From an uncultured Desulfovibrio sp. (lineage in GTDB: Bacteria; Desulfobacterota; Desulfovibrionia; Desulfovibrionales; Desulfovibrionaceae): a DNA stretch of 64,000 bases. Below, in pieces: positions 26,110 to 60,789 of this stretch (positions within the stretch are counted from its first letter, which is position 1; every line of letters starts with the position of its first letter). The stretch spans positions 35,310 through 99,309 of the forward strand of contig CASEWR010000009.1 in assembly GCA_949291675.1 (NCBI GenBank), written 5' to 3'. The notes under the pieces are model-generated. The model was not told the origin of the DNA, made no database searches, and saw nothing but the letters and a program-made list of their open reading frames with translations. The position numbers and the translations under genes were made by a program.

Positions 26110-26229
26110 CAGCCCGATGTCCGGCCGGGCCTGATGGCCCGGACTCATATATCAGGGAGTGTTTCCGGTTTGTCCCGGGAGCGCTCCCTCTTGTTGTCTG
26201 GCGGGGCTGAAGGCTCTGTTGCCATTGTC

Positions 26230-26322
26230 CCTTGTCATTTCCCCGTGTCATTGCCTCTTGTCATTGCCTCGTGTCATTGTTCCCCTGGTATTGCCCATTG
26301 TCATTGCCAGGTGTTTTGCCAG
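26230..26322. repeat. 13-bp tandem repeat KTGTCATTGCCYC x7
   Basis: TGTCAT-like cores occur at 26233, 26246, 26259, 26272, 26286, 26299 and 26312. Confidence 0.8.
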
Positions 26323-26428
26323 TACTTCTGCCTGCTGTCCGCTTCTGCCCTGCCTTTTGTCGTTGCCATTTGCCGGGAAAAGAGGCACGATGCGGCATCA
26401 TTTTTCGGGGTTTTCGGAGGATACGTCC

Positions 26429-27781
26429 ATGCAACACCGCCTTGCAGGGTTTTGTCTGACCCTGCTGCTTGTCAGCTGCTGCGGCTGCAGTATGCCCGTT
26501 CCTGCAGGGGCTCAGCCCGCAGACACAAAGCAGACCGGGAGCGAGGAAAAACAGCAGCCATTGAGCAAGTTCGACGCCCTGCGCCGCTTTGGCCAGGTCC
26601 TCGACATTGTTGAGCGCTCCTATGTGAACGACATCGGCCAGGCAGAGCTTGTCAACGGCGCCATCAAGGGAATGCTGCAGGGACTGGATCCCCATTCCTC
26701 CTTCATGAGTGCCGATGAATACAAGGAGATGCAGGAGACCACATCCGGCGAGTTCTTCGGCATTGGCGTGGAAATCGCCATGGAGAACGGCCAGGTGACC
26801 GTAGTGGCCCCCATTGAGGACACGCCTGCCTTCAATGCCGGCATGAAGACCGGGGACATCATCCTGACCATTGACGGCAAGTCCACCCAGGAAATGACCC
26901 TGCAGGACGTGGTGTCGCGCATTCGCGGTCCCAAGGACACCAAGGTGGAGCTCTCCATCCTGCACACCAATGGCAAGGAGCCTGTGCATCTGAGCATTGT
27001 GCGCGGCGCCATTCCCATCATCAGCGTCAAGAGCAAGAAGCTTGAGGACGGCTACTACTGGGTCCGCCTCACCCGCTTCTCGGAAAAGACCACGGACGAG
27101 CTCATCGAAGCAGTGGCCGAGGCAAAGAAGGACGCCGGCAAGGGCGGCATCAAGGGCATTGTCCTTGATTTGCGCAACAACCCCGGCGGTCTGCTCAGCC
27201 AGGCAGTGAGCGTCTCAGACCTCTTTTTGCAGAAGGGCACCATTGTTTCCATCAAGGGCAGAAGCAATGTGACCGAGCGCGTCTATACAGCCTCCATCCA
27301 GGGCACGGATGTGGAAGCCCCCATGGTGGTGCTGATCAATGCCGGCTCTGCCTCTGCCTCGGAAATCGTGGCCGGTGCCCTGAAGGATCAGCACAGGGCC
27401 CTCATTGTGGGCGAGCGCTCCTTCGGCAAGGGCTCGGTGCAGAACATCATTCCCCTTGCTGACGGCTCGGGTCTCAAGCTGACTGTGGCCCTCTATTACA
27501 CGCCTGACAACAAGTCCATTCAGGCAGAGGGTGTCAGCCCTGATGTGGAGATTCCCTTTGAGAAGCCCTCGGACAACGACAAGGAAAACCGTTTCCTGCT
27601 GCGCGAGGCTGATCTGAACCGCCACCTGGAAAACAGCACCAGCACTGGCGGAGAAAAGAACAGTGCCAGCCAGGCTGAAGACAAACAGGTGAAGGAACAG
27701 CTTGCCAGAGACAATCAGCTGCGCATGGCCCTGCAGCTTGTGAAGGGACTGCCCAGCATGCAGGCCATCAAAAACAGGTAA
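26429..27781 (+). CDS. S41 carboxyl-terminal processing protease (Ctp/Prc-like) with PDZ domain
   Basis: It has a signal/lipobox-like start (MQHRLAGFCLTLLLVSCCGC), PDZ (GDIILTIDG), and S41 motifs (DLRNNPGG, GSASASEI, SFGKGSVQ). GGAGGA lies 7 nt before ATG 26429. Confidence 0.85.
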   Translation: MQHRLAGFCLTLLLVSCCGCSMPVPAGAQPADTKQTGSEEKQQPLSKFDALRRFGQVLDIVERSYVNDIGQAELVNGAIKGMLQGLDPHSSFMSADEYKEMQETTSGEFFGIGVEIAMENGQVTVVAPIEDTPAFNAGMKTGDIILTIDGKSTQEMTLQDVVSRIRGPKDTKVELSILHTNGKEPVHLSIVRGAIPIISVKSKKLEDGYYWVRLTRFSEKTTDELIEAVAEAKKDAGKGGIKGIVLDLRNNPGGLLSQAVSVSDLFLQKGTIVSIKGRSNVTERVYTASIQGTDVEAPMVVLINAGSASASEIVAGALKDQHRALIVGERSFGKGSVQNIIPLADGSGLKLTVALYYTPDNKSIQAEGVSPDVEIPFEKPSDNDKENRFLLREADLNRHLENSTSTGGEKNSASQAEDKQVKEQLARDNQLRMALQLVKGLPSMQAIKNR

Positions 27782-28835: not shown

Positions 28836-31763
28836 TTACACTGAACCGGGCAGCTGTGCGCCCTGCCTGAGCAGGTAGCGCTGGCTCGGTCCCTTGCCCT
28901 TGCGCTCAAGCAGACCGTCTTCCACAAAGACCTGCAGGTCATACTGGGCAGTGCGCGCCGAGACACCGGCAAGCTCCTGATAGTCCTTGCGGCTGAACTC
29001 GCCTGCTGCCTGCACAGCGGCGAAGATGCGCTCCAGTCTGGCATAGCTGGAGGTCTCTCTGGCACCAGGCGCCTTGCTTCTGGCGGATGTTGCAGGCTCT
29101 GCAGCACGTTGCTCTGCCTGACTGACTGTGTCAGGCAGGGCAGATGCAGCAGGCTCTGACTGTGCCGCAGCCTGGGCAGCGCGGTCGAATCCGCCGGCGG
29201 CAGTGTCGGCAGGAGCTGTGTCTGCAGGCACAGGGAGCATGCCGGCCACAGCGTCAGCCCGGGGTGCGGGAATGGCAGGGGGCATGGCCTGGCTTCCTGT
29301 ACCGGCCTGGCTGGCAGCCCTGGCAGGTTCCCCGGCTGCGGACACTGCTGCATCGGCCTGTGCCGCATTGTTGTTTGTCGCGTCCGGCTGTGTCGCAGCG
29401 GGCTTTGCCGCACCGTTTCGCGGCGCGTCCGGTTTTGCTGCACCAGGTTTTGCTGCACCGGGCTTTGCTGCACCGGACTTTGCTGCACCGGCCCTGGGCG
29501 CATCAGCCACGGGGATGGGCGTGTTCATCCTTCCCTGGTCTCTGGCCTGTTCGCGCAGCAAGGTCTTGGTGTCTGCAGCGCCCTGATCTGCGCCGAGCTG
29601 GAGATGATGGGGCAGGATGATGTCGCCGTCACAGAAGGCTGCTGTTCTGAAGATGGTATTGCTCAGCTCGCGCACATTGCCGGGCCAGTGATAGTGCATG
29701 AGGCGGCTCAGGGCACCCTTGCTCAGGCCCGGAATGGGGCGGGTGGCGTGTGACTGTTCGTGTGCCTGGCGCAGGAAGAAGAGGGCAAGATAGGGAATGT
29801 CCATCTTATGCTCGCGCAGGGGCACAGTATGAATGGTAATTACAGCCAGGCGGAAGTAGAGGTCCTCCCGGAAGGTCCCCTTCTGGATCTCCTCGCGCAG
29901 CTCGGCATTGGTTGCTGCAATGACCCTGGTATTGAAGGGGATGCTGGTATCCGAGCCAAGCGGGGTGATGCGCCGGTCAGAGAGGGCGCGCAGCAGGGCC
30001 TGCTGCACCTTGGGCGAGGCGTTGCCGACCTCGTCCAGCATGAGCGTGCCGCCCTCGGCAGTGAGGAAGGCGCCCTTGCGGCTGTCTCTGGCTTCCGAGA
30101 AGGCCCCCTTCACATGGCCAAAGAGGCTGTCCATGAGCAGACTTTCATCCAGGGCACCGCAGTTGATGGTCATGAAGGGGCCGTCTTTGTGGGCAGAGTG
30201 CATGTGGATGGCCCGGCTCACCAGTTCCTTGCCTGTGCCTGTCTCACCCATGACCAGGACATCGGCCTGCACCATGGCTGCCTGCAGGATATTCTGGCGC
30301 AGCGTGCGTATCTCGCTGCTCACCCCGATGATGCCATCCGGGGGAACGGGAATGTCGCCTGGCAGGTTGTGGGCTTCCTCAACCTCGATGCGTGCCGAGG
30401 TCAGGGTGTTCTCCATGTCGCGCTCATCCTCAAGCATGCGCAACTGTTCCAGGAGCTTGTTGACCTCGGTGCGCACCTCGCACACTTCCTTCGGCGCACT
30501 GCGCTCTGGCAGCGGTTTGGCCAGGGCCGAGGCGCCTGCCTCGGCAATGTCTCTGCGCAGGTAGTGCAGGGTTTTGCGCAGGGCTATGCCTGTGCAGAAC
30601 ATGGCCAGAGCGAGGAAGAAGACGGCTGCAGCACAGGCAATGAGATAGTGTCTGAGCATGAGGGAGCGCTGGTTGGTGGCTGCCAGGGAGGTATCCAGCA
30701 CCACAATGCCGCCCACCACGTCCGTGCGCCCCGCAGCGCCTGATGTATAGAGCACAGGCGCATAGCTGACTGTCTCCACGGGCAGGCCTTCCTTGTTCCA
30801 GGGCGTCTTGCTTGTCTGGAACTGGCCGGCTTCCTTTTTCTGGATATGATTCATCATGGTCCAGTAGGAGTAATAGTCGCCGCCCGGGCGGAAGCCCTGG
30901 GGGTAGCCGGCCCTGCCGAAATCACCCTGGAAGCCCGAGCGCACGCTGTCTATGGCTGCGGGCTGCTCTGCACTGCCCTGCTTCGTGTTGGTCTCGAAGA
31001 TCATCCAGCCGGCACTGTCCACAAAGAAGGCAGGGGGCGGAGCCAGGTCATTGCGCATGGAAATCGCGCAACGGGAGGTGACCTCGCACAGCCAGTCAAG
31101 GTCTATGGAGAGGATCAAATATCCCGCAAAGTCCCCGTTGCCCAGGGTGACAGGCGTTGTAAAGCGCATGAGCTGCACAGTCAGCTGGGTCTGGGAGGTT
31201 GTATTGTCAGGGTCAGTAAAGGAATAGGAGACCTCGGTGGGAATGGAGAGCGAGACTTCGTGCTCTTCGGGCTGGCGCAGGGGCAGATGGAAGGGGGAGG
31301 AGGGCTGCACGTCCGTGAGTTCCGGGGAGATGGAGCGCATTTTGCCCTTGTCCTGTATCCACAGGAAGCGTTTGCCTGCCTGGGCTCCGAGGCCCAGGAA
31401 GGCTGCCTCGCAGAATCGCGCATCGCCCATGGAATTGAGGATCTCCAGCCTGCGCCAGATGCGATGTTCGAATTCCTGGAAGGAGGTGGAGCCTGTGGCA
31501 AGAGTCACAATCTGATTGCGCGTTTCCTGAAGGGTCTGGGAAAGCGCAATACCCATGCTCTGGGAGAGGATATAGGAGTTTTGCGCGATAGCATTTGCCA
31601 GATTCTCCTCGACATTTTTGTGCGTGATCGCGAAAAGCGCAATCATGATAGCGAGGGGAACTGGCAGGCAGAAAAGCATAAGTCTGCGTACCAGGCCGGC
31701 ATTATTCCAGAAATGCGGCCTTGAAACGCGAAACTGCCGGGGGGAAAAGTGCAAATCAGCCAT
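28836..31763 (-). CDS. atypical sigma-54-dependent activator: N-terminal membrane-bounded sensor, AAA+ core, long Ala/Pro-rich linker, C-terminal winged-helix-like domain
   Basis: It has two TM segments flanking a ~330-aa extracytoplasmic region, GETGTGKE, a GAFSEA loop, and WPGNVRELSN. A ~175-aa low-complexity linker follows (29055-29579), and the C-terminus reads SRKDYQELAGVSARTAQYDLQVFVEDGLLERKGKG. Confidence 0.85.
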   Translation of the reverse strand: MADLHFSPRQFRVSRPHFWNNAGLVRRLMLFCLPVPLAIMIALFAITHKNVEENLANAIAQNSYILSQSMGIALSQTLQETRNQIVTLATGSTSFQEFEHRIWRRLEILNSMGDARFCEAAFLGLGAQAGKRFLWIQDKGKMRSISPELTDVQPSSPFHLPLRQPEEHEVSLSIPTEVSYSFTDPDNTTSQTQLTVQLMRFTTPVTLGNGDFAGYLILSIDLDWLCEVTSRCAISMRNDLAPPPAFFVDSAGWMIFETNTKQGSAEQPAAIDSVRSGFQGDFGRAGYPQGFRPGGDYYSYWTMMNHIQKKEAGQFQTSKTPWNKEGLPVETVSYAPVLYTSGAAGRTDVVGGIVVLDTSLAATNQRSLMLRHYLIACAAAVFFLALAMFCTGIALRKTLHYLRRDIAEAGASALAKPLPERSAPKEVCEVRTEVNKLLEQLRMLEDERDMENTLTSARIEVEEAHNLPGDIPVPPDGIIGVSSEIRTLRQNILQAAMVQADVLVMGETGTGKELVSRAIHMHSAHKDGPFMTINCGALDESLLMDSLFGHVKGAFSEARDSRKGAFLTAEGGTLMLDEVGNASPKVQQALLRALSDRRITPLGSDTSIPFNTRVIAATNAELREEIQKGTFREDLYFRLAVITIHTVPLREHKMDIPYLALFFLRQAHEQSHATRPIPGLSKGALSRLMHYHWPGNVRELSNTIFRTAAFCDGDIILPHHLQLGADQGAADTKTLLREQARDQGRMNTPIPVADAPRAGAAKSGAAKPGAAKPGAAKPDAPRNGAAKPAATQPDATNNNAAQADAAVSAAGEPARAASQAGTGSQAMPPAIPAPRADAVAGMLPVPADTAPADTAAGGFDRAAQAAAQSEPAASALPDTVSQAEQRAAEPATSARSKAPGARETSSYARLERIFAAVQAAGEFSRKDYQELAGVSARTAQYDLQVFVEDGLLERKGKGPSQRYLLRQGAQLPGSV
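29401..29490. repeat. 15-bp in-frame tandem repeat x6 encoding GAAKP-type pentapeptides (inside EBP linker)
   Basis: The sequence reads ggctttgccgcaccg / ... / ggttttgctgcacca / ggttttgctgcaccg / ggctttgctgcaccg / gactttgctgcaccg. Confidence 0.8.
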
Positions 31764-31870
31764 GACGCAACGCTCCACAAAGGTCTGTAGCAGTAAAATA
31801 GCACTGGAACAGGGATTTTGCAACTTTTTTCACAAGGTACCGGGGCCCTGGATGAAATCTGTGTGAGAAA

Positions 31871-31900: not shown

Positions 31901-31915
31901 TGGCACGGAATATGC
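31901..31915 (+). promoter_or_regulatory. sigma-54 (-24/-12) promoter
   Basis: TGGCACGGAATATGC matches the consensus TGGCAC-N5-TTGC at 14/15 positions with correct GG/GC spacing. It lies 98 nt upstream of ATG 32013 and is divergent from an EBP gene. Confidence 0.6.
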
Positions 31916-32012
31916 TTCTTCCGGGGCGTGGCTTTTTTGCGAAATTTGTGCGCACTCACCGAACTTCAGGCATTGCGCCCAAGTCTCAGAACGATTTGAC
32001 AAGGAGAGAGTC

Positions 32013-32327
32013 ATGACGAAGCTGAGAAAACTTTCACTGAGAATTTCAGCGTGGTTTGTTGGCTGTTTCGCAACACTGTTGCTGATAGCCCCCGGTCTGG
32101 CCCTGGCTGCCAAGAAGGAAGCAGCCAACGTGGTCATCGTCGCTGATACCAGACGCCTCGACGGCATCCTGCTGTGGTGGGCCCAGATGTACAACGACAG
32201 CCATCTGTACTTCATGATCCTGACGATCATCATCATTCCGATCACCGGTTGTGTGTTTGGTATGCTGGCTGACCTGGTCATGAATCACATCGGCATCGAC
32301 CTCAAGCACAGAAAAGCTGCCGAATAG
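32013..32327 (+). CDS. small membrane protein (104 aa), unknown function
   Basis: AAGGAGAG lies upstream of the ATG. It has a signal/TM segment (WFVGCFATLLLIAPGLALA) and a second TM (YFMILTIIIIPITGCVFGMLADLV). Confidence 0.7.
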   Translation: MTKLRKLSLRISAWFVGCFATLLLIAPGLALAAKKEAANVVIVADTRRLDGILLWWAQMYNDSHLYFMILTIIIIPITGCVFGMLADLVMNHIGIDLKHRKAAE

Positions 32328-32338
32328 GGAGGTACATT

Positions 32339-33400
32339 ATGGACTGGTTGTATGTATTGATGCCCATTTCCGGCTGCACCGTCTTCTGGCCCGGTCTCAT
32401 CATCCTGGGTCTTGGTGTCGGCATCATCGGCGGTTTCTTCGGTATGGGTGGTGCCTGGATGGTTACCCCCGGTCTGAACATCCTTGGTTTCCCCATGGCC
32501 TTCGCCATCGGTACTGACGTTGCGCACATGGCCGGTAAATCCCTCATCTCCACCATGCGTCACGGCCGTTTCGGTAACGTTGACTACAAGCTCGGTCTGA
32601 CCATGCTTGTCGGTACCGTCGTCGGCGTGGAAATCGGCGCTCAGATCGTCATGCAGCTGGAACGTCTCGGCAGCGTTGACCAGGTTGTCCGCTGGCTGTA
32701 CGTCGTCCTGCTCATCCTCCTTGCCTGGATGGTGTTCCATGACATCGCCCTGCGCAAGAAGAAGGAACGTGAAGCTGCTGCCAAGGGTGAAGCCCTTGAC
32801 GAAAAGGCCACCGGTCTTGACTGGGCCACCAAGCTGCACGCCATCAAGATTCCCCCGATGGTCCACTTCCATCAGGCCGGCATCTACTGCTCCGCATGGC
32901 TCCCCATCGGCGTGTCCTTCCTCACTGGCGTTCTCGCCGGTATCCTCGGCATCGGCGGCGGCCTCATTCGTATGCCCGCCCTGGTCTACCTGGTTGGCTG
33001 CCCGACCCACATCGCAGTCGGTACTGACCTCTTTGAAGTGGCCATCTCCGGCCTGTATGGCGCTGCCACCTACACCCTGAAGGGTCGTACTGAACTCGTG
33101 GCCGCCCTCATCATGCTCGTCGGTGCTGCCGTCGGCGCCCAGATTGGCGCAGTCGCCACCAAGTACATCAAGGGCTACGGCATCCGCACCGCCTTCGGTC
33201 TGGCTGTTATCGGCTGCCTCTGCTCCGTCGTCCTCAAGCTCATCCAGCCCTACTTCCCCAACTACGCCGGTTTCATCAATGGCGTGGCTACCGTGGTCGT
33301 GCTCGGCTTCGTGACCGCCATCTCTGTGTACATCGCTGCCAAGATGGTCCATGGCGCCAAGCAGGAACTTGCTGAAAAGAAGCGCGCTGCCCAGAACTAA
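32339..33400 (+). CDS. TauE/SafE-family (DUF81) permease, long form with inserted cytoplasmic loop
   Basis: It has duplicated 4-TM halves with GGFFGMGG / GILGIGGG motifs and a charged loop (KKKEREAAAKGE). GGGAGG lies upstream. Confidence 0.85.
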   Translation: MDWLYVLMPISGCTVFWPGLIILGLGVGIIGGFFGMGGAWMVTPGLNILGFPMAFAIGTDVAHMAGKSLISTMRHGRFGNVDYKLGLTMLVGTVVGVEIGAQIVMQLERLGSVDQVVRWLYVVLLILLAWMVFHDIALRKKKEREAAAKGEALDEKATGLDWATKLHAIKIPPMVHFHQAGIYCSAWLPIGVSFLTGVLAGILGIGGGLIRMPALVYLVGCPTHIAVGTDLFEVAISGLYGAATYTLKGRTELVAALIMLVGAAVGAQIGAVATKYIKGYGIRTAFGLAVIGCLCSVVLKLIQPYFPNYAGFINGVATVVVLGFVTAISVYIAAKMVHGAKQELAEKKRAAQN

Positions 33401-33414
33401 CTGAGGAGGACACC

Positions 33415-33999
33415 ATGAGAACATACTACAAGATTCTGGCATTGTTCGTCCTCTGCCTCGGACTGGCAGCATGTGGCGACTTCGGACAGGTTGAACAGGG
33501 CCGCTGCGTGGCCTACGACGCCAGCAAACAGACCTTTACCCTGGTCCTGGATGTCAATCACGATGTGAACAATCCCTCCTACACCGGTGGTGTCATTCAG
33601 TACACCATGCCCGCTGACCCCGAAGAAATCGGTCCTGAGCCCACTGCCGGCGGCCGCGTGCAGATCAACACCGAGAAGAGCGAAGTCATCATCTACAGAG
33701 ATGGCAAGCTTGAGACCGTGAAGGTCGAGTTCACCGACATTCAGAAGAACATCAAGCCCTCCAACCCCAAGGTCAAGGGTCAGAAGTTCCCCATTATCGA
33801 CAAGGATAACGGCACCATCACAGAGTACTCCAGACGTCTGAGCGAAATCGTGACCTTCAAGGTTCCCGCCGAGTACCTCGACCTGCCCCCGAGCACCTGG
33901 GAAGCCGGTGACGAATGCCGCATCTACTACAAGGAAAATGCCAAGCATCAGGCTCTGCGTTTCATGAACGTGAGCAAGACCAACATCTTCAAGAAGTAG
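33415..33999 (+). CDS. lipoprotein of unknown function (resembles DUF4881-type proteins from memory; needs an HMM check)
   Basis: It has the lipobox LGLAAC. GAGGAGGA lies upstream of the ATG. The product is 194 aa. Confidence 0.7.
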   Translation: MRTYYKILALFVLCLGLAACGDFGQVEQGRCVAYDASKQTFTLVLDVNHDVNNPSYTGGVIQYTMPADPEEIGPEPTAGGRVQINTEKSEVIIYRDGKLETVKVEFTDIQKNIKPSNPKVKGQKFPIIDKDNGTITEYSRRLSEIVTFKVPAEYLDLPPSTWEAGDECRIYYKENAKHQALRFMNVSKTNIFKK

Positions 34000-34129
34000 T
34001 AAAATCCAGTACGCCTTGAAGCATCCCCTCCGGGGCCCCGCCTGCGGGGCCCCATGGAGAGGGGGGAAGTATGAAAGCAGTGCATGCTTGCGGTGAAGAG
34101 ACAGAGTGTACGGAAGAGGAGAAGAGCAG

Positions 34130-34471
34130 ATGAGACGGAACGACACAGACAATCAGTACAAGAGAACCATCTGGTTGTGCGCCATCAGGGTGGCTGCCAA
34201 TGTGGTTATGCTGGCTGCCGTGTGCCTGGCCATGTATCAGTCCTACTTGAACCCCGCTTCCTCTCTTTCTGTCTTCTGTCAGTACTTCTTTGGCATCAGT
34301 ATCGTCACCTGGATGCTGGCAAAGTTTGCCTGTTCCACTGTTCGTAAAATCTATGCAGACGCAGATGAAGGACTTGTACGCCTGCCGGGTCACAAGAAAG
34401 CAATGCTTGTGCACTGGAAGGTAGCCGAATCATCTCTGTATGTGCAGAGACCTTCGCAGATAGTACTGTAA
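34130..34471 (+). CDS. small membrane protein (113 aa), unknown function
   Basis: GAGGAG lies 8 nt before ATG 34130. It has two hydrophobic helices. The ORF is open from 34106. Confidence 0.5.
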   Translation: MRRNDTDNQYKRTIWLCAIRVAANVVMLAAVCLAMYQSYLNPASSLSVFCQYFFGISIVTWMLAKFACSTVRKIYADADEGLVRLPGHKKAMLVHWKVAESSLYVQRPSQIVL

Positions 34472-34679
34472 CAGGCCTGTCCAGGACCAGTGTACGGCCA
34501 GCTCACAGGCAGCTGCGCTCGTCTTTTACACGAACATATTCCACACGACCATTCCTTGCCTGTCAGCACCTCCTGCCTGCGGGCCGGGAATGCGTCTTTC
34601 GAGGTGCTGCCCAGCCCCCGCCTTTACATCCTGCGCGGTCAGGATTTGCCGGACAGCACCCCGCACAACTCTCCATAGA

Positions 34680-35075
34680 GACACCCTTCCCGATACCGGA
34701 ACCCCTTGCCCGTGTTCAGGGAAGGGTGTCACCCCCAGAGACGGCAGCAGGCGACATCGTCGCAGCGCCAGGGACATATCTCCACAAAGGGCACCCTTCC
34801 CGATACCGGAACCCCTTGCCCGTGTTCAGGGAAGGGTGCCAGACCCCAAGGGCAGCAGGCGAGATAGTCGCAGCGCCAGGGGCACACTTCTCCACAAAGG
34901 CATCCTTTCCGAAACGCGGAACCCCTTGCCCGCCTTTTGGAAAGGATGTCACTTTTCAGGCCAGGACCTGCCACAGGCCCTTCGGCGACACACTGAAGGC
35001 ACGTCCCCCCGCGCATGACACCCGTTGCTTTTCCGGACCCCCTTGCCCGGACTTGTAACGGGTGTCTCCATTTTT
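34680..35075 (+). repeat. tandem array of four ~110-bp structured units (candidate multi-hairpin ncRNA or REP-like element)
   Basis: The hairpin arms are 34680-34691/34719-34730, 34790-34801/34829-34840, 34899-34910/34939-34950 and 35017-35026/35057-35066. The loop core CGGAACCCCTTGCCCG is conserved. A T-run at 35071-35075 follows the last hairpin. Confidence 0.8.
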
Positions 35076-35204
35076 GCTGCCTGTTTGCCTCTTGCCTTTG
35101 GCCGGGCGTGCGCAGTGTCCTTCAGCCAGGCACAGGGCAAGATGCTTGCCCAAGAGGCAGGGAGACACTATTCTTGCAGGACACGATCACAGGAAGGAGT
35201 TGTA

Positions 35205-36311
35205 ATGGAAACAAACGTCCCCAACCATTCCCCGGACACTGCCGGCGGAGAATCCTGTCCCCCGAATCAGCGTCAGGCACAGCGCCTTGACCAGTGTCCC
35301 GAGTGGCTTCTCTACTCCAATGCCCGCGCACGGCAGCGCATGGCCGGTCTTGTTGCCGCAGTGCTCCTGATTCTGGCCATGGCCATCCTGGTGGACGGCC
35401 TCTTTGCCCGCATGCGTGGCGGCGGCTCCTACAGACTGGAGATGCTTGCCGGCACAAGCGAGCCCGTCTCAGGCCCCATGGGTAGTGCTCCGGCTGTGGA
35501 AAGCGACATGCGCGCCTTCCCCATCCCTGTGGATGCGCCCATCTCCTTTGAGTTCCAGGGCTTCTTCACCAGCTACTGGTTCGGAACAGGCATGTGGCGC
35601 GGCCTTGTGCACGTGAGTGAGACTGCTCCCAGCGGCACCTATGCCCTGGCAGTGGGCATTGAGGGACAGCCTTCCTCTTCCTTCCAGACCTATACCATCA
35701 GTGTGGCGCGCAGCGAGCGGGAGCAGTACAGGAATGCCCTCTCCCTGGTGCGGCGCTGGACAGGCTTCAATCCCTTCTGGCTTGCGGCAACCTTCGGCAT
35801 CCTGGGCATAGGTACAGGCCTCACCAGCTTTTTGCTGGGCAGACGGCTCAATGCCCTTCTGCGCGACATGGGCCTTGCGGAAATCGTGAAAGTTGTGCCC
35901 GAGGGCGACCTTGTGCGCGTCTATGCCGTGCAGGGCAAACGCGAGGTGACGGAGCAGAGCTATGTGGCCTATGACAGGGACATGAAGCGCCTTGGCAAGG
36001 TCATCTATGACGGCGAGAAAAACGGCATAGCCAGCTGCCTCTTTGTTCCTGCAGGCCACGGCATGCCCACCCCGGGCTCCTTTATCGCCTTCTGGGAGAG
36101 GGCGGACTTTACAGGTACCCCCATGCGCAGAGGCGTGTTCACGCCGCTGCTTGAAAAAGGCATGCAGGCCGTGCGCGACAAGGGGGCTGCCGAGGCCGGC
36201 GCTGACGCCAGGCCAGACAGCCAGCCAGGCAGCCAGACAGGCAGTGCAGCTGCAAAGGCAGAGCACAACGCCGGGGTGTCCGGCTGCGAAAAGGGGCAGG
36301 ACAAAGCCTGA
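35205..36311 (+). CDS. hypothetical membrane protein (368 aa, two TM segments)
   Basis: AGGAAGGAG lies upstream of ATG 35205. The TM helices are [15 protein letters not shown] and [21 protein letters not shown]. Confidence 0.6.
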
Positions 36312-55757: not shown

Positions 55758-57470
55758 GTGGCTTTTGAAAGCAAAAACACTGACAGGGAGGGGAGTTCTG
55801 TCCCTTCGTCCGCTGAACATGCATCAGAGTGTGCAGGCAGTGCGTCAGAACATGCAGCAGGCACTGCAGCAGGTACTGCCCGGGCAGATGGTCCAGGCAA
55901 TCTCTTTTCTCCCGAGTATATGTGCGAACTGCCGGATAGTTTTCGGGGTAACACCTATCTCGCACTGCTGCATGAGATAGCGCAGCTTTTGAGCTCCACG
56001 GCCGATGTGAAGGCCTGCCTTGACGGGGTGCTGGACCTGCTGGCCCGGCACCTGCACATGATGCGGGGAACCATTACCCTGGTTTCACCAAAAAGCGGGC
56101 AGATACGCATTGAGGCCAGCTACGGCCTCAAGCCTGCCGAGAAATCCCGCGGCCAATACCATCCCGGTGAGGGCATCATCGGCCATGTGGTCCAGAGCGG
56201 CGAGCCCATGTACATCTCCAGGGTCTCGGAAGAGCCGCGTTTTCTCAACAGAACCAGATCCAGGGATCTGAACAAGAGCGACATCTCCTATATCTGTGTG
56301 CCCATACGCCTCAATCAGCAGGTGGTGGGAGCGCTGTCCGTGGACAGACTGCTGGCAGACGAGGAGCGTCTGGAAGAAGAGGAGCAGCTGCTCTTCATCA
56401 TTGCCATGCTGCTCGGCTATGCTGCCTGGGAAGCCCAGCGCAAGATGGACGAAAGCAATGGCATGCCCGGACGCCCCAAGGGCTTTATCGGCAATTCCGA
56501 GGTCATGCAGCGCGTCTACGCGCAGATTGTGCAGGTCAGTCAGTCCCAGGCAACGGTCTTTATCCAGGGTGAGTCCGGCACAGGCAAGGAGCTTGCTGCC
56601 AGAGCCATTCACAATGCCTCCTCCAGGGCAGACAAGCGCTTTGAGGCCATCAACTGCGCAGCCCTGCCCGAGAACCTCATTGAAAGTGAGCTCTTCGGCT
56701 ATGAGAAGGGGACCTTCACCGGTGCTGTGAGCACCCGCAAGGGCCGCTTTGAGCTGGCAGACGGCGGCACGCTCTTCCTGGACGAAGTGGGGGAACTCTC
56801 CCTGCTTGCCCAGGCAAAGCTGCTGCGCGTCCTGCAGGAGCGCAGCATTGACCGCCTGGGCGGCTCTTCGCCCATTCCTGTGGATGTGCGTCTCATCACT
56901 GCCACCAACAGGAATCTGGAAAAGATGGTGGAAGAAGGCACGTTTCGGCGTGACCTCTACTACCGTCTCTATGTCTTCCCCATCGTGCTGCCGCCCCTGC
57001 GCGAGCGTCAGGACGACATTCTGCCCCTGGCAAGCCACTTCGTGAAGCGTTTTGCCAGGGAGATGGGCAGGGAGGATGTGCGCATCTCCCTGGCAGCCAT
57101 GGACATGCTGCAGCGCTATGCCTGGCCCGGCAATATCCGCGAGCTGGAAAACGCCATGGAGCGTGCCGTGCTCATGCTCGGTACCCAGAACCTTATCCTG
57201 CCCCAGCATCTGCCTGCCTTCATGCATGTCTATGAAGGCACAGTCACAGAAAGCGGGAGCACGCATCAGCGCAGAGCTGCTGCCACACTGCAGGAACACC
57301 TGGACGAGCTGGAAAAGGCCTGCATTATCGACGCCATGGAAGCAAGCCGGGGCCAGATTGCCAAAGCTGCCCAGGCGCTTGGCCTGACCCAGCGCATCCT
57401 GGGCCTGCGTCTGAAAAAGTACGGCATCAGCTACAAGGACTACAGGCACAAGAAGCAGGGCGGAAGCTGA
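55758..57470 (+). CDS. sigma-54-dependent activator with N-terminal GAF domain (NifA-like architecture)
   Basis: It has a GAF-like region (LLHEIAQLL...GIIGHV), [16 protein letters not shown] (GAFTGA-loop variant), [10 protein letters not shown], and a C-terminal HTH ([20 protein letters not shown]). The start is GTG 55758 or ATG 55920. Confidence 0.85.
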
Positions 57471-57678
57471 GCTGCCTGACCTGACCTGACCTGCTGAAGC
57501 TGGCCTTTTGCTGCAGGACGTCTGAGACCGGACCTCTGCGTTGGACCGTCGCGGACAGCAATCCCCATCCCCCGCTCCAGAGCCCGCGTGCCAGCACCGC
57601 CTTGAGCCTGTCCTCGCACCTTTGGACGCACTTTTGCACGTCCCTCACTGCTCTTCCCTCACTGCTCTTTCCTCTCAG

Positions 57679-57917
57679 CCATTCCCCCGCCATTCCCCCT
57701 GCCGCAGGCTCGGCCAGGCATTATTCCCCCGCCATTCGCCCACCAGCTGGCTCAGCCAGGCTCCATTCACCCGCCATTCCCCGGCAGCCGGCATCTGACC
57801 GGCACCATTTCCCCCGCCATTCCCCGGCAGCCGGCATCTGACCGGCACCATTTCCCCGCCATTCCCCCGGCAGCCGGCTCAGCCAGGTACTATTCCCCCG
57901 CCATTCTCCCGCCACTG
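57679..57917. repeat. ~43-bp tandem repeat x5.5
   Basis: Units start at about 57679, 57721, 57763, 57806, 57849 and 57891. Two are near-identical (CCATTTCCCCCGCCATTCCCCGGCAGCCGGCATCTGACCGGCA). Confidence 0.85.
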
Positions 57918-58469
57918 TCTCTCCCCTTCTTTCTGTTTTCTTCCACCCTGCGTGTGGCTTTCTTTCCTGTGCGTTGCAGGCATGTGCCTGGTGCCCCTGT
58001 GTCGTGCCTTCGTCGTGCACCTGTCGCGCGCCTGGGCACAAAAAAGAAGGCAAGGTGCCGAAATTCCCGCAGAGTTTCTGGTTCTGCGTCTACGTGCCGC
58101 CGTCGGACCGCCGGCAGACAGCATTTGGAAAATGACACACAGGTAGCATGGCCCGACGTGTCAGAGGAGGTTTGTTGCCGAAAATAGACAAAAATGTAGA
58201 TTATCTTGCTGTGACAAACTGACACTGTGATTTCAGTGAGTTGCAGAAGAAAAACGAAAATATGACCGTCAGTTTCAGGGTGTGCAGCCGGAAGCTGGCG
58301 GCAAAAAGAGACAAAAATGTCTTTTTTTGCACCTGGCGTTCCCCGGCCACACTTGTTCTGCGCACTGTCAAAAGGCCGTTGACTGAACAGCCAGTCAGTC
58401 CTAACAGCCATGAAACTCCACTCCTTTTTGCGGGTGTGAGAGGTGATGGTGTGCAGGGCTGCTCATGTT

Positions 58470-58484
58470 TGGCACAAGTCTTGC
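58470..58484 (+). promoter_or_regulatory. sigma-54 (-24/-12) promoter for the GS-III gene
   Basis: TGGCACAAGTCTTGC is a perfect TGGCAC-N5-TTGC. It lies 131 nt upstream of ATG 58615. Confidence 0.75.
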
Positions 58485-58614
58485 TATACCCCTTTGCGGA
58501 GTGCGGAGCGCACAATCCTGCAAAGGAGCGCTCCTTCCCCCGCGGAGCCCGAGGCTCCTTTGCAGTACAGTTTATGCAGCCCTGTCCACAATCAGGACTG
58601 TTCGGGAGTAGAGC

Positions 58615-60789
58615 ATGACAACGCCACGAGCACAGGCTGTTTTTGCGGCCGTGAGCGAAGCACCCGTCACGGGCAGCCTCGCCAAAAGCACAGACGAAAT
58701 TTTCGGTGAATACGTCTTCACCCTGGATGAAATGCGCAAGCGCCTGCCCAAGGACGTGTTCAAGAACCTCGAGCGCATTATCCACAGCGGCGGCCGTCTT
58801 GATCCTGCCATGGCAGACAGCGTTGCTGCAGCCATGAAGGAGTGGGCCATCTCCAAAGGCGCCACCCACTATACGCACTGGTTCCAGCCCATGACCGGCA
58901 CCACAGCTGAAAAGCATGATGCCTTCATCTCTCCCATGGGCGACGGCAAGGCCATCTGCGACTTCTCCGGCAAGATGCTCATCAGCGGCGAGCCTGATGC
59001 TTCTTCCTTCCCGTCCGGTGGTATCCGCTCCACCTTCGAGGCCCGCGGCTACACAGCCTGGGACCCGTCCGTTCCGGTCTTCATCATCCCCGGACCCTAT
59101 TCTTCCACGCTGCACGTTCCCACCTTCTTTTACTCCTATTCCGGTGAGGCGCTGGATCGCAAGATTCCTCTGATCCGCTCCATTGCAGCCCTCTCCAAAC
59201 AGGCTTTGCGCATCCTGCGCCTCTTCGGCAATGAGAAGGCCACCAGCGTGCAGGCGTCCGTTGGTCCTGAGCAGGAATACTTCCTGGTCGACAAGAACCT
59301 GGCCATCCTGCGTCCCGACCTCATGCTCTGCGGCAGAACCCTGCTCGGTGCTCCCTCTCCCAAGGGACAGGAACTTGAGGACCACTACTTCGGTGCCATT
59401 CCTGCCAGAGTGCAGAGCTTCATGGAAGACGTGGAAAACGAGCTCATCCGCCTCGGCATCCCTGCCAAGACCCGTCACAATGAAGTGGCTCCCGGACAGT
59501 TCGAGATTGCTCCTGTCTACGAGGACGCCAACATGGCCTGTGACCACAACATGCTCACCATGAACATGATGCGGCACATGGCAGCCCGCCACGGCTTTGT
59601 CTGCCTGCTCCATGAAAAGCCCTTTGCAGGCGTGAACGGCTCGGGCAAGCACAATAACTGGTCCATTTGCGACAACGAAGGCAACAATCTGCTCAATCCC
59701 GGCTCCACACCCAGGGATAATGCCCAGTTCCTTGTCTTCCTGGCAGCAGTGCTCAGGGCAGTGCACAAGCATGCCGTGGCCCTGCGCCTCGGCACCATCG
59801 GTGCCGGCAATGACCATCGTCTCGGCGCCAACGAGGCCCCGCCGGCCATTATCTCCGTCTACCTCGGCGAGCAGCTCAACGAGGTCATCGAGAGCATCAT
59901 CACCGGCGAGCCCATGCACAGCCACAAGGCCGGCTCCATGGAAATCGGTGTCTCCTCACTGCCGCCGCTGCCCGTGGACCTGTCCGACCGCAACCGCACC
60001 AGCCCCTTTGCCTTCACAGGCAACAAGTTCGAGTTCCGCGCCGTGGGCTCCTCGCAGTCCATTGCTCCGGTCAACATTGCCCTGAACGCCGCAGTGGCCT
60101 GCGCCCTTGACGACATCGCCACCCAGCTCGAAGCCGCAGTGGCTGCAGGCGCAAGCCTCAACCAGGCCCTGCAGGAATTCCTGCCCCGCGAATTCAAGGA
60201 ACACATGCCGGTCATCTTCAACGGCAACGGCTACTCTGAAGCCTGGACCGAAGAAGCTGCCCGCCGCGGTCTGCCCAACCTCAACAACACTGTGGACGCA
60301 CTTGAGCGCTACTCTGACCCCGAGGTCATGAACGTCTTTTTGCGCCATGGCATCCTGAGCGAGCGGGAAATGCTCTCCCGTCAGGACATTCTCCTTGATG
60401 CCTACGGCAAGGCCATTGTCCTTGAAGGCCATGTGCTGAGCGACCTCATCCTCTCCCGTGTCCTTCCCGTCTGCAAGGAAGCCGTGAAGCTCGATGCAGA
60501 CCTTGCCGCAAGCCTGCGCGCAGCAGGCCTGGATGCAGCAGGCGAGCTGAAGGCCCTTGCCGTCAAGCGTGACCACACCCTGGCTCTGGACAGCCTGGTT
60601 GCCAGGCTTGACGCAGCCATTGCCAGCGTCACGGCAAAGGACGACGTGCTTGTGCGCGCCCGCGCAGCCAGGGACGAAATCCTGCCTGTCATGGCAGAGA
60701 TCAGGACCCATGCCGACGCCATGGAACGTTTGTGCGACGACGCTGCCTGGCCGCTTCCCAAGTATTCTGAACTGCTCTGGATCCACTAG
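58615..60789 (+). CDS. glnN: type III glutamine synthetase
   Basis: The product is 724 aa. It has a GS-III-type N-terminus (IFGEYVFTLDEMRKRLPKDVFK) and a GS catalytic core (NGSGKHNNWS). Confidence 0.9.
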   Translation: MTTPRAQAVFAAVSEAPVTGSLAKSTDEIFGEYVFTLDEMRKRLPKDVFKNLERIIHSGGRLDPAMADSVAAAMKEWAISKGATHYTHWFQPMTGTTAEKHDAFISPMGDGKAICDFSGKMLISGEPDASSFPSGGIRSTFEARGYTAWDPSVPVFIIPGPYSSTLHVPTFFYSYSGEALDRKIPLIRSIAALSKQALRILRLFGNEKATSVQASVGPEQEYFLVDKNLAILRPDLMLCGRTLLGAPSPKGQELEDHYFGAIPARVQSFMEDVENELIRLGIPAKTRHNEVAPGQFEIAPVYEDANMACDHNMLTMNMMRHMAARHGFVCLLHEKPFAGVNGSGKHNNWSICDNEGNNLLNPGSTPRDNAQFLVFLAAVLRAVHKHAVALRLGTIGAGNDHRLGANEAPPAIISVYLGEQLNEVIESIITGEPMHSHKAGSMEIGVSSLPPLPVDLSDRNRTSPFAFTGNKFEFRAVGSSQSIAPVNIALNAAVACALDDIATQLEAAVAAGASLNQALQEFLPREFKEHMPVIFNGNGYSEAWTEEAARRGLPNLNNTVDALERYSDPEVMNVFLRHGILSEREMLSRQDILLDAYGKAIVLEGHVLSDLILSRVLPVCKEAVKLDADLAASLRAAGLDAAGELKALAVKRDHTLALDSLVARLDAAIASVTAKDDVLVRARAARDEILPVMAEIRTHADAMERLCDDAAWPLPKYSELLWIH

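Follow-up and report, generated by a model that had tools for sequence, protein, structure and literature searches.

A tandem array of hairpins lies in the 733-bp gap between a gene for a 113-amino-acid membrane protein (stop at 34471) and a gene for a 368-amino-acid protein (start at 35205), within a 64-kb stretch of DNA from an uncultured gut member of the Desulfovibrionaceae (contig CASEWR010000009.1; the whole stretch of 64,000 nucleotides is referred to as the window). The array is most likely a lineage-specific structured RNA module in the 3' untranslated region (3'UTR) of an operon resembling DVU0150-0146 of D. vulgaris. Judged from sequence, it is a real and previously undescribed structured RNA motif, and covariation counts together with comparison to a sister species support the conclusion that an RNA structure whose loop is fixed is under selection. 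With respect to function, the favored reading is that of a multicopy regulatory RNA, which would originate in this sigma-54 operon's 3'UTR and would present C-rich loops to an RNA or protein partner; this reading is plausible, but it is held tentatively and falls somewhat short of being probable. The DUF4881 protein encoded in the operon shares 85% identity with its counterpart in Candidatus Desulfovibrio intestinipullorum.

Structure, strand and conservation of the hairpin units

Four intact hairpin units and one decayed unit (unit 0), all direct repeats, occupy positions 34536-35075 (Table 1). The plan of the module is a single-stranded AUCUCCAC flank followed by a two-tier hairpin of 45-54 nt, the 10-nt loop of which contains CCCCUUGC. 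The intact units recur with periods of 110, 109 and 118 bp when measured by stem start and of 110, 110 and 117 bp when measured by loop motif, and Tandem Repeats Finder (TRF) reported a period-110 array at 34670-34932 with a score of 374. The loop motif CCCCTTGCCCG is found at 34702, 34812, 34922 and 35039; a search of the 64 kb that tolerated one mismatch returned no other site. A first-pass annotation, made from the sequence alone, had described four units with the stem-start periods given above; its coordinates for the four stems (Table 1), for a TTTTT run at 35071-35075 and for a palindrome at 35135-35151 all proved correct, and its count holds for the intact units and misses unit 0. Similarity of unit 0 to the other units of the window is not significant by itself, and it is counted as a decayed copy because of its fold and its alignment to unit 0 of the sister species. 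The spacers were likewise said to be homologous, which is true of those between units 1 and 2 and between units 2 and 3 and of no others.

The gap does not appear to encode protein, as the first-pass annotation had held. Gene callers placed no gene in its 733 bp, including in independent calls on identical contigs, open reading frames (ORFs) overlapping the repeats gave no Pfam matches, and because the 110-bp period is not a multiple of three, a peptide repeat cannot be encoded.

Folded in isolation, each unit forms the two-tier hairpin, with its 10-nt loop, at -29 to -31 kcal/mol, and the whole gap folds better than shuffled sequences (z = -5.2, + strand). The probability of being unpaired exceeds 0.9 in the loop, except for its final two positions, where values are 0.52-1.0. 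Units 2 and 3 have flanks that are mostly unpaired as well. A covariance model (R1) was built from 9 copies and then used to align 10 distinct copies from 5 sources. In the 10-copy alignment, 92.2% of stem cells were able to pair, as opposed to 39-55% when the 3' partners were slid by 1-3 columns, and compensatory changes on both sides were present in five pairs (13 cells); none of 500 shuffles matched the observed pairing or covariation. Covariation had also been claimed for the inner stem, where the core CGG/CCG is in fact invariant and change consists of added pairs that lengthen the stem (G-C, C-G or U-G at the position that follows). Of 12 copies, 11 retain the loop sequence CCCCUUG and most retain AUCUCCAC, while the stem sequences are wholly different between lineages, as in unit 0 of the sister species (UUCUUCACCUGCCUG/CAGGCGGGUGGAGGA).

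Comparison with the sister species separates the hairpins, which are 80-89% identical, from the intervening spacers, which are 41-54% identical. For example, unit 3 is 80% identical to sister-species unit B and its flanking spacers are 43-54% identical, and unit 4 shares 89% identity with sister-species unit C over a stretch that takes in the T-run. These values and the covariation counts bear out the earlier suggestion of selection on structure with a conserved loop. The suggestion that one G-U pair would be legal only with the + strand as the RNA also fared well: 18 G-U pairs form on that strand, and single-copy orthologues from two relatives (L256 and L234, described below) fold to -25.5 and -27.4 kcal/mol as the + strand versus -14.5 and -20.5 kcal/mol as the - strand. 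The G-U pairs and a + strand fold that is better by 7-11 kcal/mol suggest an RNA that runs in the direction of the flanking genes.

The 3' ends of the units differ. The U-tract of unit 4 (UCCAUUUUU) begins 4 nt past the stem, unit 3 is followed by ACUUUU, and units 1 and 2 have no U-tract. An intrinsic (Rho-independent) terminator consists of a G+C-rich stem directly followed by a U-tract, and unit 4 is likely to be the operon terminator. A + strand scan for the terminator consensus reported none, partly since its loop limit was 8 nt.

Distribution and history of the module

An Rfam search (4227 families), which the first-pass annotation had proposed, gave no match to the window at the gathering score, to the gap at E<10 or to the relatives at E<1; only sub-threshold noise was seen (VA, int-alpA, Hrs13 and similar). 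The covariance-model search proposed along with it recovered copies at the orthologous locus only: with filters off, R1 found just the four units in the 64 kb of the window, and in 240 kb of related contigs only the orthologous site. The next-best R1 match in the window (30770-30838, 21 bits) lies antisense to coding sequence, has a mismatched loop and was discarded as spurious. A scan of GTDB genomes with the 17-mer CCGGAACCCCTTGCCCG returned at least 119 loci; among the matches listed, 118 were chance occurrences in G+C-rich genomes without the hairpin, and the one real match was the orthologous locus. Of 22 matches in JGI metagenomes, 20 belonged to conserved soil coding sequence, and the real ones again came from the orthologous locus only. 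Plasmid and phage collections gave no match. A 15-mer scan of viral contigs gave 94 matches, which were rejected, all being singletons expected by chance.

The array is identical in same-species contigs from four other samples. In one contig of the species (L003, 2457-2469), approximately 11 bp replace 35 bp between the stop codon and unit 0 (34488-34522 in the window), and the array is unchanged. The sister species, with flanking proteins 88-93% identical, has unit 0 and units A, B and C when its sequence is pieced together from short-read contigs, all of which break inside the array. Its unit 0 is a perfect 17-bp hairpin with the loop ACCCCUUG directly after the stop codon, and the U-tracts of its units B and C are conserved. 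Three further gut Desulfovibrio sources, L185 (GTDB metagenome-assembled genome E41__bin132), L234 and L256/L257 (human gut), in which the downstream protein is 74-76% identical, contain exactly one module each and probably represent one lineage. In L185, L234 and L256 this single module begins about 4 nt past the stop codon, and the order in the single-copy sources is module, separate terminator (CTGCCCC...GGGCAG-T9) and then promoter. The hairpins of L234 and L256 have no U-tract. Because the separate T9 terminator comes after the single module, termination in these sources does not depend on the hairpin, which is part of the upstream transcript. The window species lacks this separate terminator.

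More distant relatives, with downstream proteins 60-69% identical, have a plain terminator only, and no family member was found in relatives at 63-65% identity (L262-L264). The equivalent intergenic position in assembly GCA_030539415.1 (L264 2895-5000, L263 1-2152) extends over about 2.1 kb with a single 31-amino-acid ORF called, and no tandem repeat, Rfam match or copy of the hairpin was found in it. In L262 (626-840), a different, strongly structured 3'UTR (z = -3.2) follows the homologous small gene; the loop of one of its hairpins, UUUCCCUUGUCCCGG, faintly resembles the CCCCUUGCCCG loop, and the covariance model does not recognize the hairpin.

The distribution of single-copy and array forms points to a history in which one 3'UTR hairpin was followed by tandem amplification in one clade. 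On this comparison, the ancestral state is reconstructed as one module immediately past the last gene's stop codon and ahead of an ordinary terminator, with tandem duplication in the window species and its sister. The last two copies would then have acquired U-tracts, and so are taken to double as operon terminators in the amplified species.

Candidate functions and rival explanations

The stem evolves freely, whereas the exposed 8-nt loop and the single-stranded flank are fixed, which implies that something reads these two sequences. The array also has the position of a 3'UTR-derived small RNA (sRNA), being on the sense strand past the stop codon, with hairpins more conserved than spacers. 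The presence of an enhancer-binding protein (EBP) gene, of a putative sigma-54 promoter (TGGCACGgaatATGCT) and of the likeness to DVU0150-0146 places the array in the tail of a sigma-54 operon. We infer co-transcription with this operon, processing and the nature of the partner. In the proposed mechanism, the EBP would switch the operon on and the tail would be transcribed, whereupon the stable hairpins would outlast mRNA decay or be cut out at AU-rich flanks. The exposed C-rich loop and the CUCC flank could then pair with a G-rich partner, most likely a Shine-Dalgarno-like mRNA sequence, a higher copy number would provide a higher dose, and units 3 and 4, with their conserved U-tracts, would terminate the operon transcript as well.

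Several known systems resemble parts of this arrangement, CcsR1-4 and LhrC being the nearest models of how it might work. The CcsR1-4 ('cuckoo') RNAs of Rhodobacter sphaeroides and other Alphaproteobacteria are tandem RNAs processed from a 3'UTR (PMC8034643); like the array, they comprise four homologous hairpin RNAs in tandem, directly downstream of a small gene and with conserved C-rich loops, and the promoter of the upstream gene sets their expression, an arrangement that is proposed here also. Unlike CcsR1-4, which have two hairpins per RNA, carry the anti-Shine-Dalgarno motif CCUCCUCCC and follow a gene for a DUF1127 RNA-binding protein, the array has one hairpin per unit with CCCCUUGC in its loop and follows a 113-amino-acid membrane protein gene in a sigma-54 operon of a sulfate reducer; no sequence or Rfam relation connects the two. 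Membership in the cuckoo family (Rfam ar14 and relatives) was rejected on these grounds, namely the loop AACCCCUUGC, the single hairpin per unit, a neighboring gene without a Pfam domain and no Rfam match. The multicopy sRNAs LhrC1-5 of Listeria monocytogenes (PMC4132741) are several near-identical, mostly tandem copies with C-rich motifs (UCCC in LhrC) in loops and single-stranded stretches, and in them the terminator hairpin is functional and copy number provides dose, both of which are proposals for the array. However, each LhrC copy has its own promoter and no promoter-like site was found within the array units, and motif and phylum differ. Units as separate genes were likewise rejected: no sigma-70-like site was found in the gap, no -10 element follows any loop TTGCCC, and the spacing does not fit sigma-54.

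Several observations weigh against the multicopy regulatory RNA. Sites in the window that are complementary to the loop lie inside coding regions only; the loop complement GCAAGGGG occurs at five sites, and the two resembling ribosome-binding sites were dismissed as lying within coding regions. Pairing with local ribosome-binding sites does not rise above background, bar one species-specific match. Since there are only two deep lineages, most of the covariation count comes from paralogues and from close relatives. Copies elsewhere in the genome of the species are unlikely rather than excluded, and it is equally possible that the fixed loop is a protein-binding site that acts in cis on the mRNA.

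The species-specific match concerns the activator itself. The flank CUCCACAAAGG of units 2 and 3 (34780-34790 and 34890-34900) is an exact 11-nt complement of the EBP leader at 31773-31783, taking the EBP start at 31763 as placed by the gene caller; the complementarity spans the Shine-Dalgarno sequence, and the leader segment that faces CUCCACAAAGG reads CCUUUGUGGAG. The modules might accordingly be viewed as EBP-dependent sRNAs from the operon tail that act back on their own activator's mRNA, in a loop of the Qrr/LuxO style tuned by copy number. The comparison is with Vibrio Qrr1-5, multicopy sRNAs that are controlled by a sigma-54 EBP and feed back on the luxO mRNA ribosome-binding site (PMC2632942), with which the array shares the sigma-54 EBP context and the exact complement in the window. 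In contrast, Qrr genes are dispersed and have their own sigma-54 promoters, and in the sister species (L005) and in L256 the EBP leader pairs over 4-5 bp only, no better than shuffled leaders. Because approximately 45 comparable 11-mer matches to the array occur by chance elsewhere in the window, and the exact match is confined to the window species, feedback on the EBP leader was set aside as an explanation and kept only as a lead, and an improbable one.

The most serious rival is a purely cis-acting 3'-end element, which would protect the operon mRNA from 3' exonucleases and terminate it, or bind a protein that governs the stability or location of this mRNA, with no role in trans and with amplification simply strengthening the barrier. 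This is a realistic possibility, though one that is more doubtful than not. It fits the location at the operon end, the conserved U-runs after units 3 and 4 and after sister-species units B and C, the absence from the window species of the T9 terminator of single-copy relatives, and the failure to find a trans target in the searches described above (loop complement in the window and local ribosome-binding sites). However, neither an exonuclease barrier nor a terminator needs a fixed 8-nt loop or a 5' flank, yet both were kept amid stem turnover; furthermore, units 1 and 2 have no U-tract, the hairpins of L234 and L256 have none and are followed by a separate terminator, and the terminator scan, with its 8-nt loop limit, was empty. 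The first-pass annotation had listed a processing or stabilizing array at the end of the sigma-54 operon among its options; the location is supported, and a role at the mRNA 3' end is possible. A functionless by-product, in which slippage or unequal recombination copied a terminator region and the copies have yet to decay, would explain the very narrow distribution, with amplification in two sister species only, the near identity of units 1 and 2, hence recent, and the decay of unit 0 in the window. It is nonetheless improbable in view of the conservation of orthologous units relative to spacers (80-89% versus 41-54%), of in-stem substitutions that are compensated or G-U, and of the single-copy form with different stems in a separate lineage, which keeps loop and flank.

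A protein sponge or decoy in the manner of CsrB/RsmZ, each unit titrating CsrA or another RNA-binding protein, is unlikely. The repeated-hairpin design is common to both, tandem multiplication of a fixed-loop hairpin is what a sponge would use, and a fixed 8-nt loop suits a protein motif as well as a seed. RNAs of the CsrB and RsmX/Y/Z type are marked by numerous exposed GGA motifs, which lie in the loops of hairpins or in linkers that are single-stranded. The first-pass annotation had invoked this logic because each loop region carries a GGA, but in the array GGA sites both G's are paired, with a probability of being unpaired of 0.00-0.01 (one exception, at 34964, reaches 0.26-0.34), and the loops are C-rich without GGA. 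Moreover, no CsrB, RsmX, RsmY or RsmZ model matched in the searches described above, including the search of the gap at E<10. The array does not stand alone as a gene, and a single-copy ancestral state speaks against a dedicated sponge.

Least likely is a DNA-level element, whether a repetitive extragenic palindromic (REP) sequence or bacterial interspersed mosaic element (BIME), a miniature inverted-repeat transposable element (MITE), a set of protein-binding inverted repeats or -35-like decoys. REP/BIME sequences of Enterobacteria and Pseudomonas can stabilize upstream mRNA, and REPs number from tens to hundreds of dispersed copies per genome, with a GTAG-type 5' motif, often in alternating orientation, and a RAYT transposase; RAYT or transposase genes, terminal inverted repeats and target-site duplications mark MITE/REP elements in general. 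The array shares with them a conserved short 5' motif ahead of an imperfect palindrome and clustering in an operon-end gap, its loop CTTGCCC is the heptamer of the downstream -35 region, and in one relative (L017) the -35 region contains the 11-mer CCCCTTGCCCG. However, all copies are direct repeats at a single orthologous locus. In contrast to the REP/MITE family that the first-pass annotation had considered, no dispersed copy was found in the 64 kb, in the 240 kb of related loci, in public collections (among the matches listed), in plasmids or in phages, no RAYT gene, transposase or terminal repeat was detected, and the neighboring genes are syntenic whether or not a species carries the element. 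The G-U asymmetry points to RNA, none of the loop TTGCCC sequences is followed by a -10 element at a distance of 17 bp, and arms that differ yet remain complementary within one genome argue for base pairing rather than recognition of half-sites by a protein.

Two further classes of repeat were considered and rejected. A type III toxin-antitoxin system combines a tandem RNA repeat, a terminator and a gene for a ToxN/AbiQ-type endoribonuclease in one transcription unit; the 368-amino-acid gene next to the array has its own conserved promoter, its product is membrane-anchored and without a Pfam domain, and it is syntenic where the repeats are absent, which is unlike ToxI. A CRISPR (clustered regularly interspaced short palindromic repeats) array has identical repeats, unique spacers and cas genes or a leader, whereas here the spacers are mutually homologous, the repeats differ and no cas gene is found among the called neighbors.

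To our knowledge, very little is known of RNA-based regulation in sulfate-reducing gut bacteria, and the array offers a clean candidate that covaries naturally, whose evolution from a single copy to five can be followed and which has a defined inducer in the DVU0151-type EBP. If it is a 3'UTR-derived multicopy RNA, the CcsR/LhrC design would extend to the Desulfovibrionaceae, and a sigma-54 transport regulon would be linked to posttranscriptional control. If the improbable feedback on the EBP held as well, a gut sulfate reducer would have made a 3'UTR into a feedback loop under dosage control and, more broadly, the module would found a new family of sRNAs or protein-binding RNAs in these bacteria. 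The element is of modest practical value, since it is restricted to a few uncultured species.

Operon context, feature coordinates and other repeats

The operon upstream of the array (32013-34471) has an identical gene order in all relatives, and a divergent EBP gene precedes it. In D. vulgaris, DVU0151 regulates the DVU0150-0146 operon (PMC4641369), and by sequence the operon in the window is identified as the counterpart of that DVU0151-controlled transport operon.

Table 1. Positions of the array units and of the surrounding genes and promoters in the window
Feature	Positions	Strand	Details
Unit 0, decayed	34536-34596	+	Flank AUAUUCCACAC; hairpin 34547-34596; loop region ACCUCCUGCC; fold -27 kcal/mol
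Unit 1 (U1)	34669-34730	+	Flank CUCUCCAUAGA; hairpin 34680-34730; loop AACCCCUUGC at 34700-34709; R1 78.2 bits
Spacer 1	34731-34777	+	Homologous to spacer 2 (34841-34887); contains a small GCGAC/GUCGC hairpin; from TRF consensus and sequence
Unit 2 (U2)	34778-34840	+	Flank AUCUCCACAAAG; hairpin 34790-34840; R1 75.9 bits
Unit 3 (U3)	34888-34956	+	Flank UUCUCCACAAAG; hairpin 34899-34950 (16+4 bp, of which two G-U), followed by ACUUUU; R1 77.2 bits
Unit 4 (U4)	35017-35075	+	Hairpin 35017-35066; loop ACCCCCUUGC; without AUCUCCAC flank; then UCCAUUUUU; R1 61.9 bits
Sigma-54 EBP gene, DVU0151-like	28836-31763	-	Divergent from operon; Pfam Sigma54_activat; called 975-amino-acid product
Putative sigma-54 promoter TGGCACGgaatATGCT	31901-31916	+	Ahead of DVU0150-like gene; GG-N10-GC spacing; consensus only
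DVU0150-family gene	32013-32327	+	Pfam; first operon gene
TauE gene	32339-33400	+	Pfam; operon
DUF4881 gene	33415-33999	+	Pfam; operon
113-amino-acid membrane protein gene	34130-34471	+	No Pfam domain; last operon gene
Downstream-gene promoter	35146-35174	+	-35 TTGCCC 35146-35151; 17-bp spacer; -10 TATTCT 35169-35174
368-amino-acid gene	35205-36311	+	No Pfam domain; N-terminal membrane segment

The promoter of the downstream gene is kept in all relatives with or without hairpins (TTGCCC/TTGCAA, N17-18, TATTCT/TATTGT) and is 91% identical to that of the sister species. What had been counted as a fifth CTTGCCC of the array is the -35 box of this promoter and is conserved in relatives that have no hairpin. 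The palindrome that contains it, GGGCAAGATGCTTGCCC (35135-35151), was also considered as a sigma-54 promoter, having GG-N10-GC spacing and ending in TTGC; it was rejected because the GG is not conserved in L233 and L185, and the conserved TTGCCC-N17-TATTCT was preferred. In L017 (11100-11125), which has no hairpin, the -35 region reads ACCCCCCTTGCCCG, which includes the 11-mer of the hairpin loop, with TATTCT 17 bp further on.

The contig from one sample (L002, 1-4265) is 100% identical to the window from 30280 on and unrelated upstream, so that the breakpoint falls inside the EBP gene. The EBP remnant is a 665-amino-acid product with no Sigma54_activat match and lies beside pyruvate kinase and DHquinase_II genes. 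The breakpoint reflects a chimeric scaffold or else a rearrangement in that strain by which the activator is disabled.

Short C-rich tandem repeats are unusually abundant across the window. They include 6.5 copies of CATTGCCCCGTGT (26223-26308) near the start of the ORF at 26159-27781 and 3.9 copies of a 15-mer inside the EBP gene (29434-29491). A second long gap of 1.1 kb (57470-58615) contains an array with a period of 42 and 5.5 copies (CCATTCCCCCGCCATTCCCC plus GGCAGCCGGCTCAGCCAGGCA) at 57679-57911. About 560 bp beyond this array, a near-perfect putative sigma-54 promoter, TGGCACaagtcTTGCT (58470-58485), precedes a 724-amino-acid ORF (58615-60789), and the period-42 repeats could be enhancer-binding sites or another RNA.

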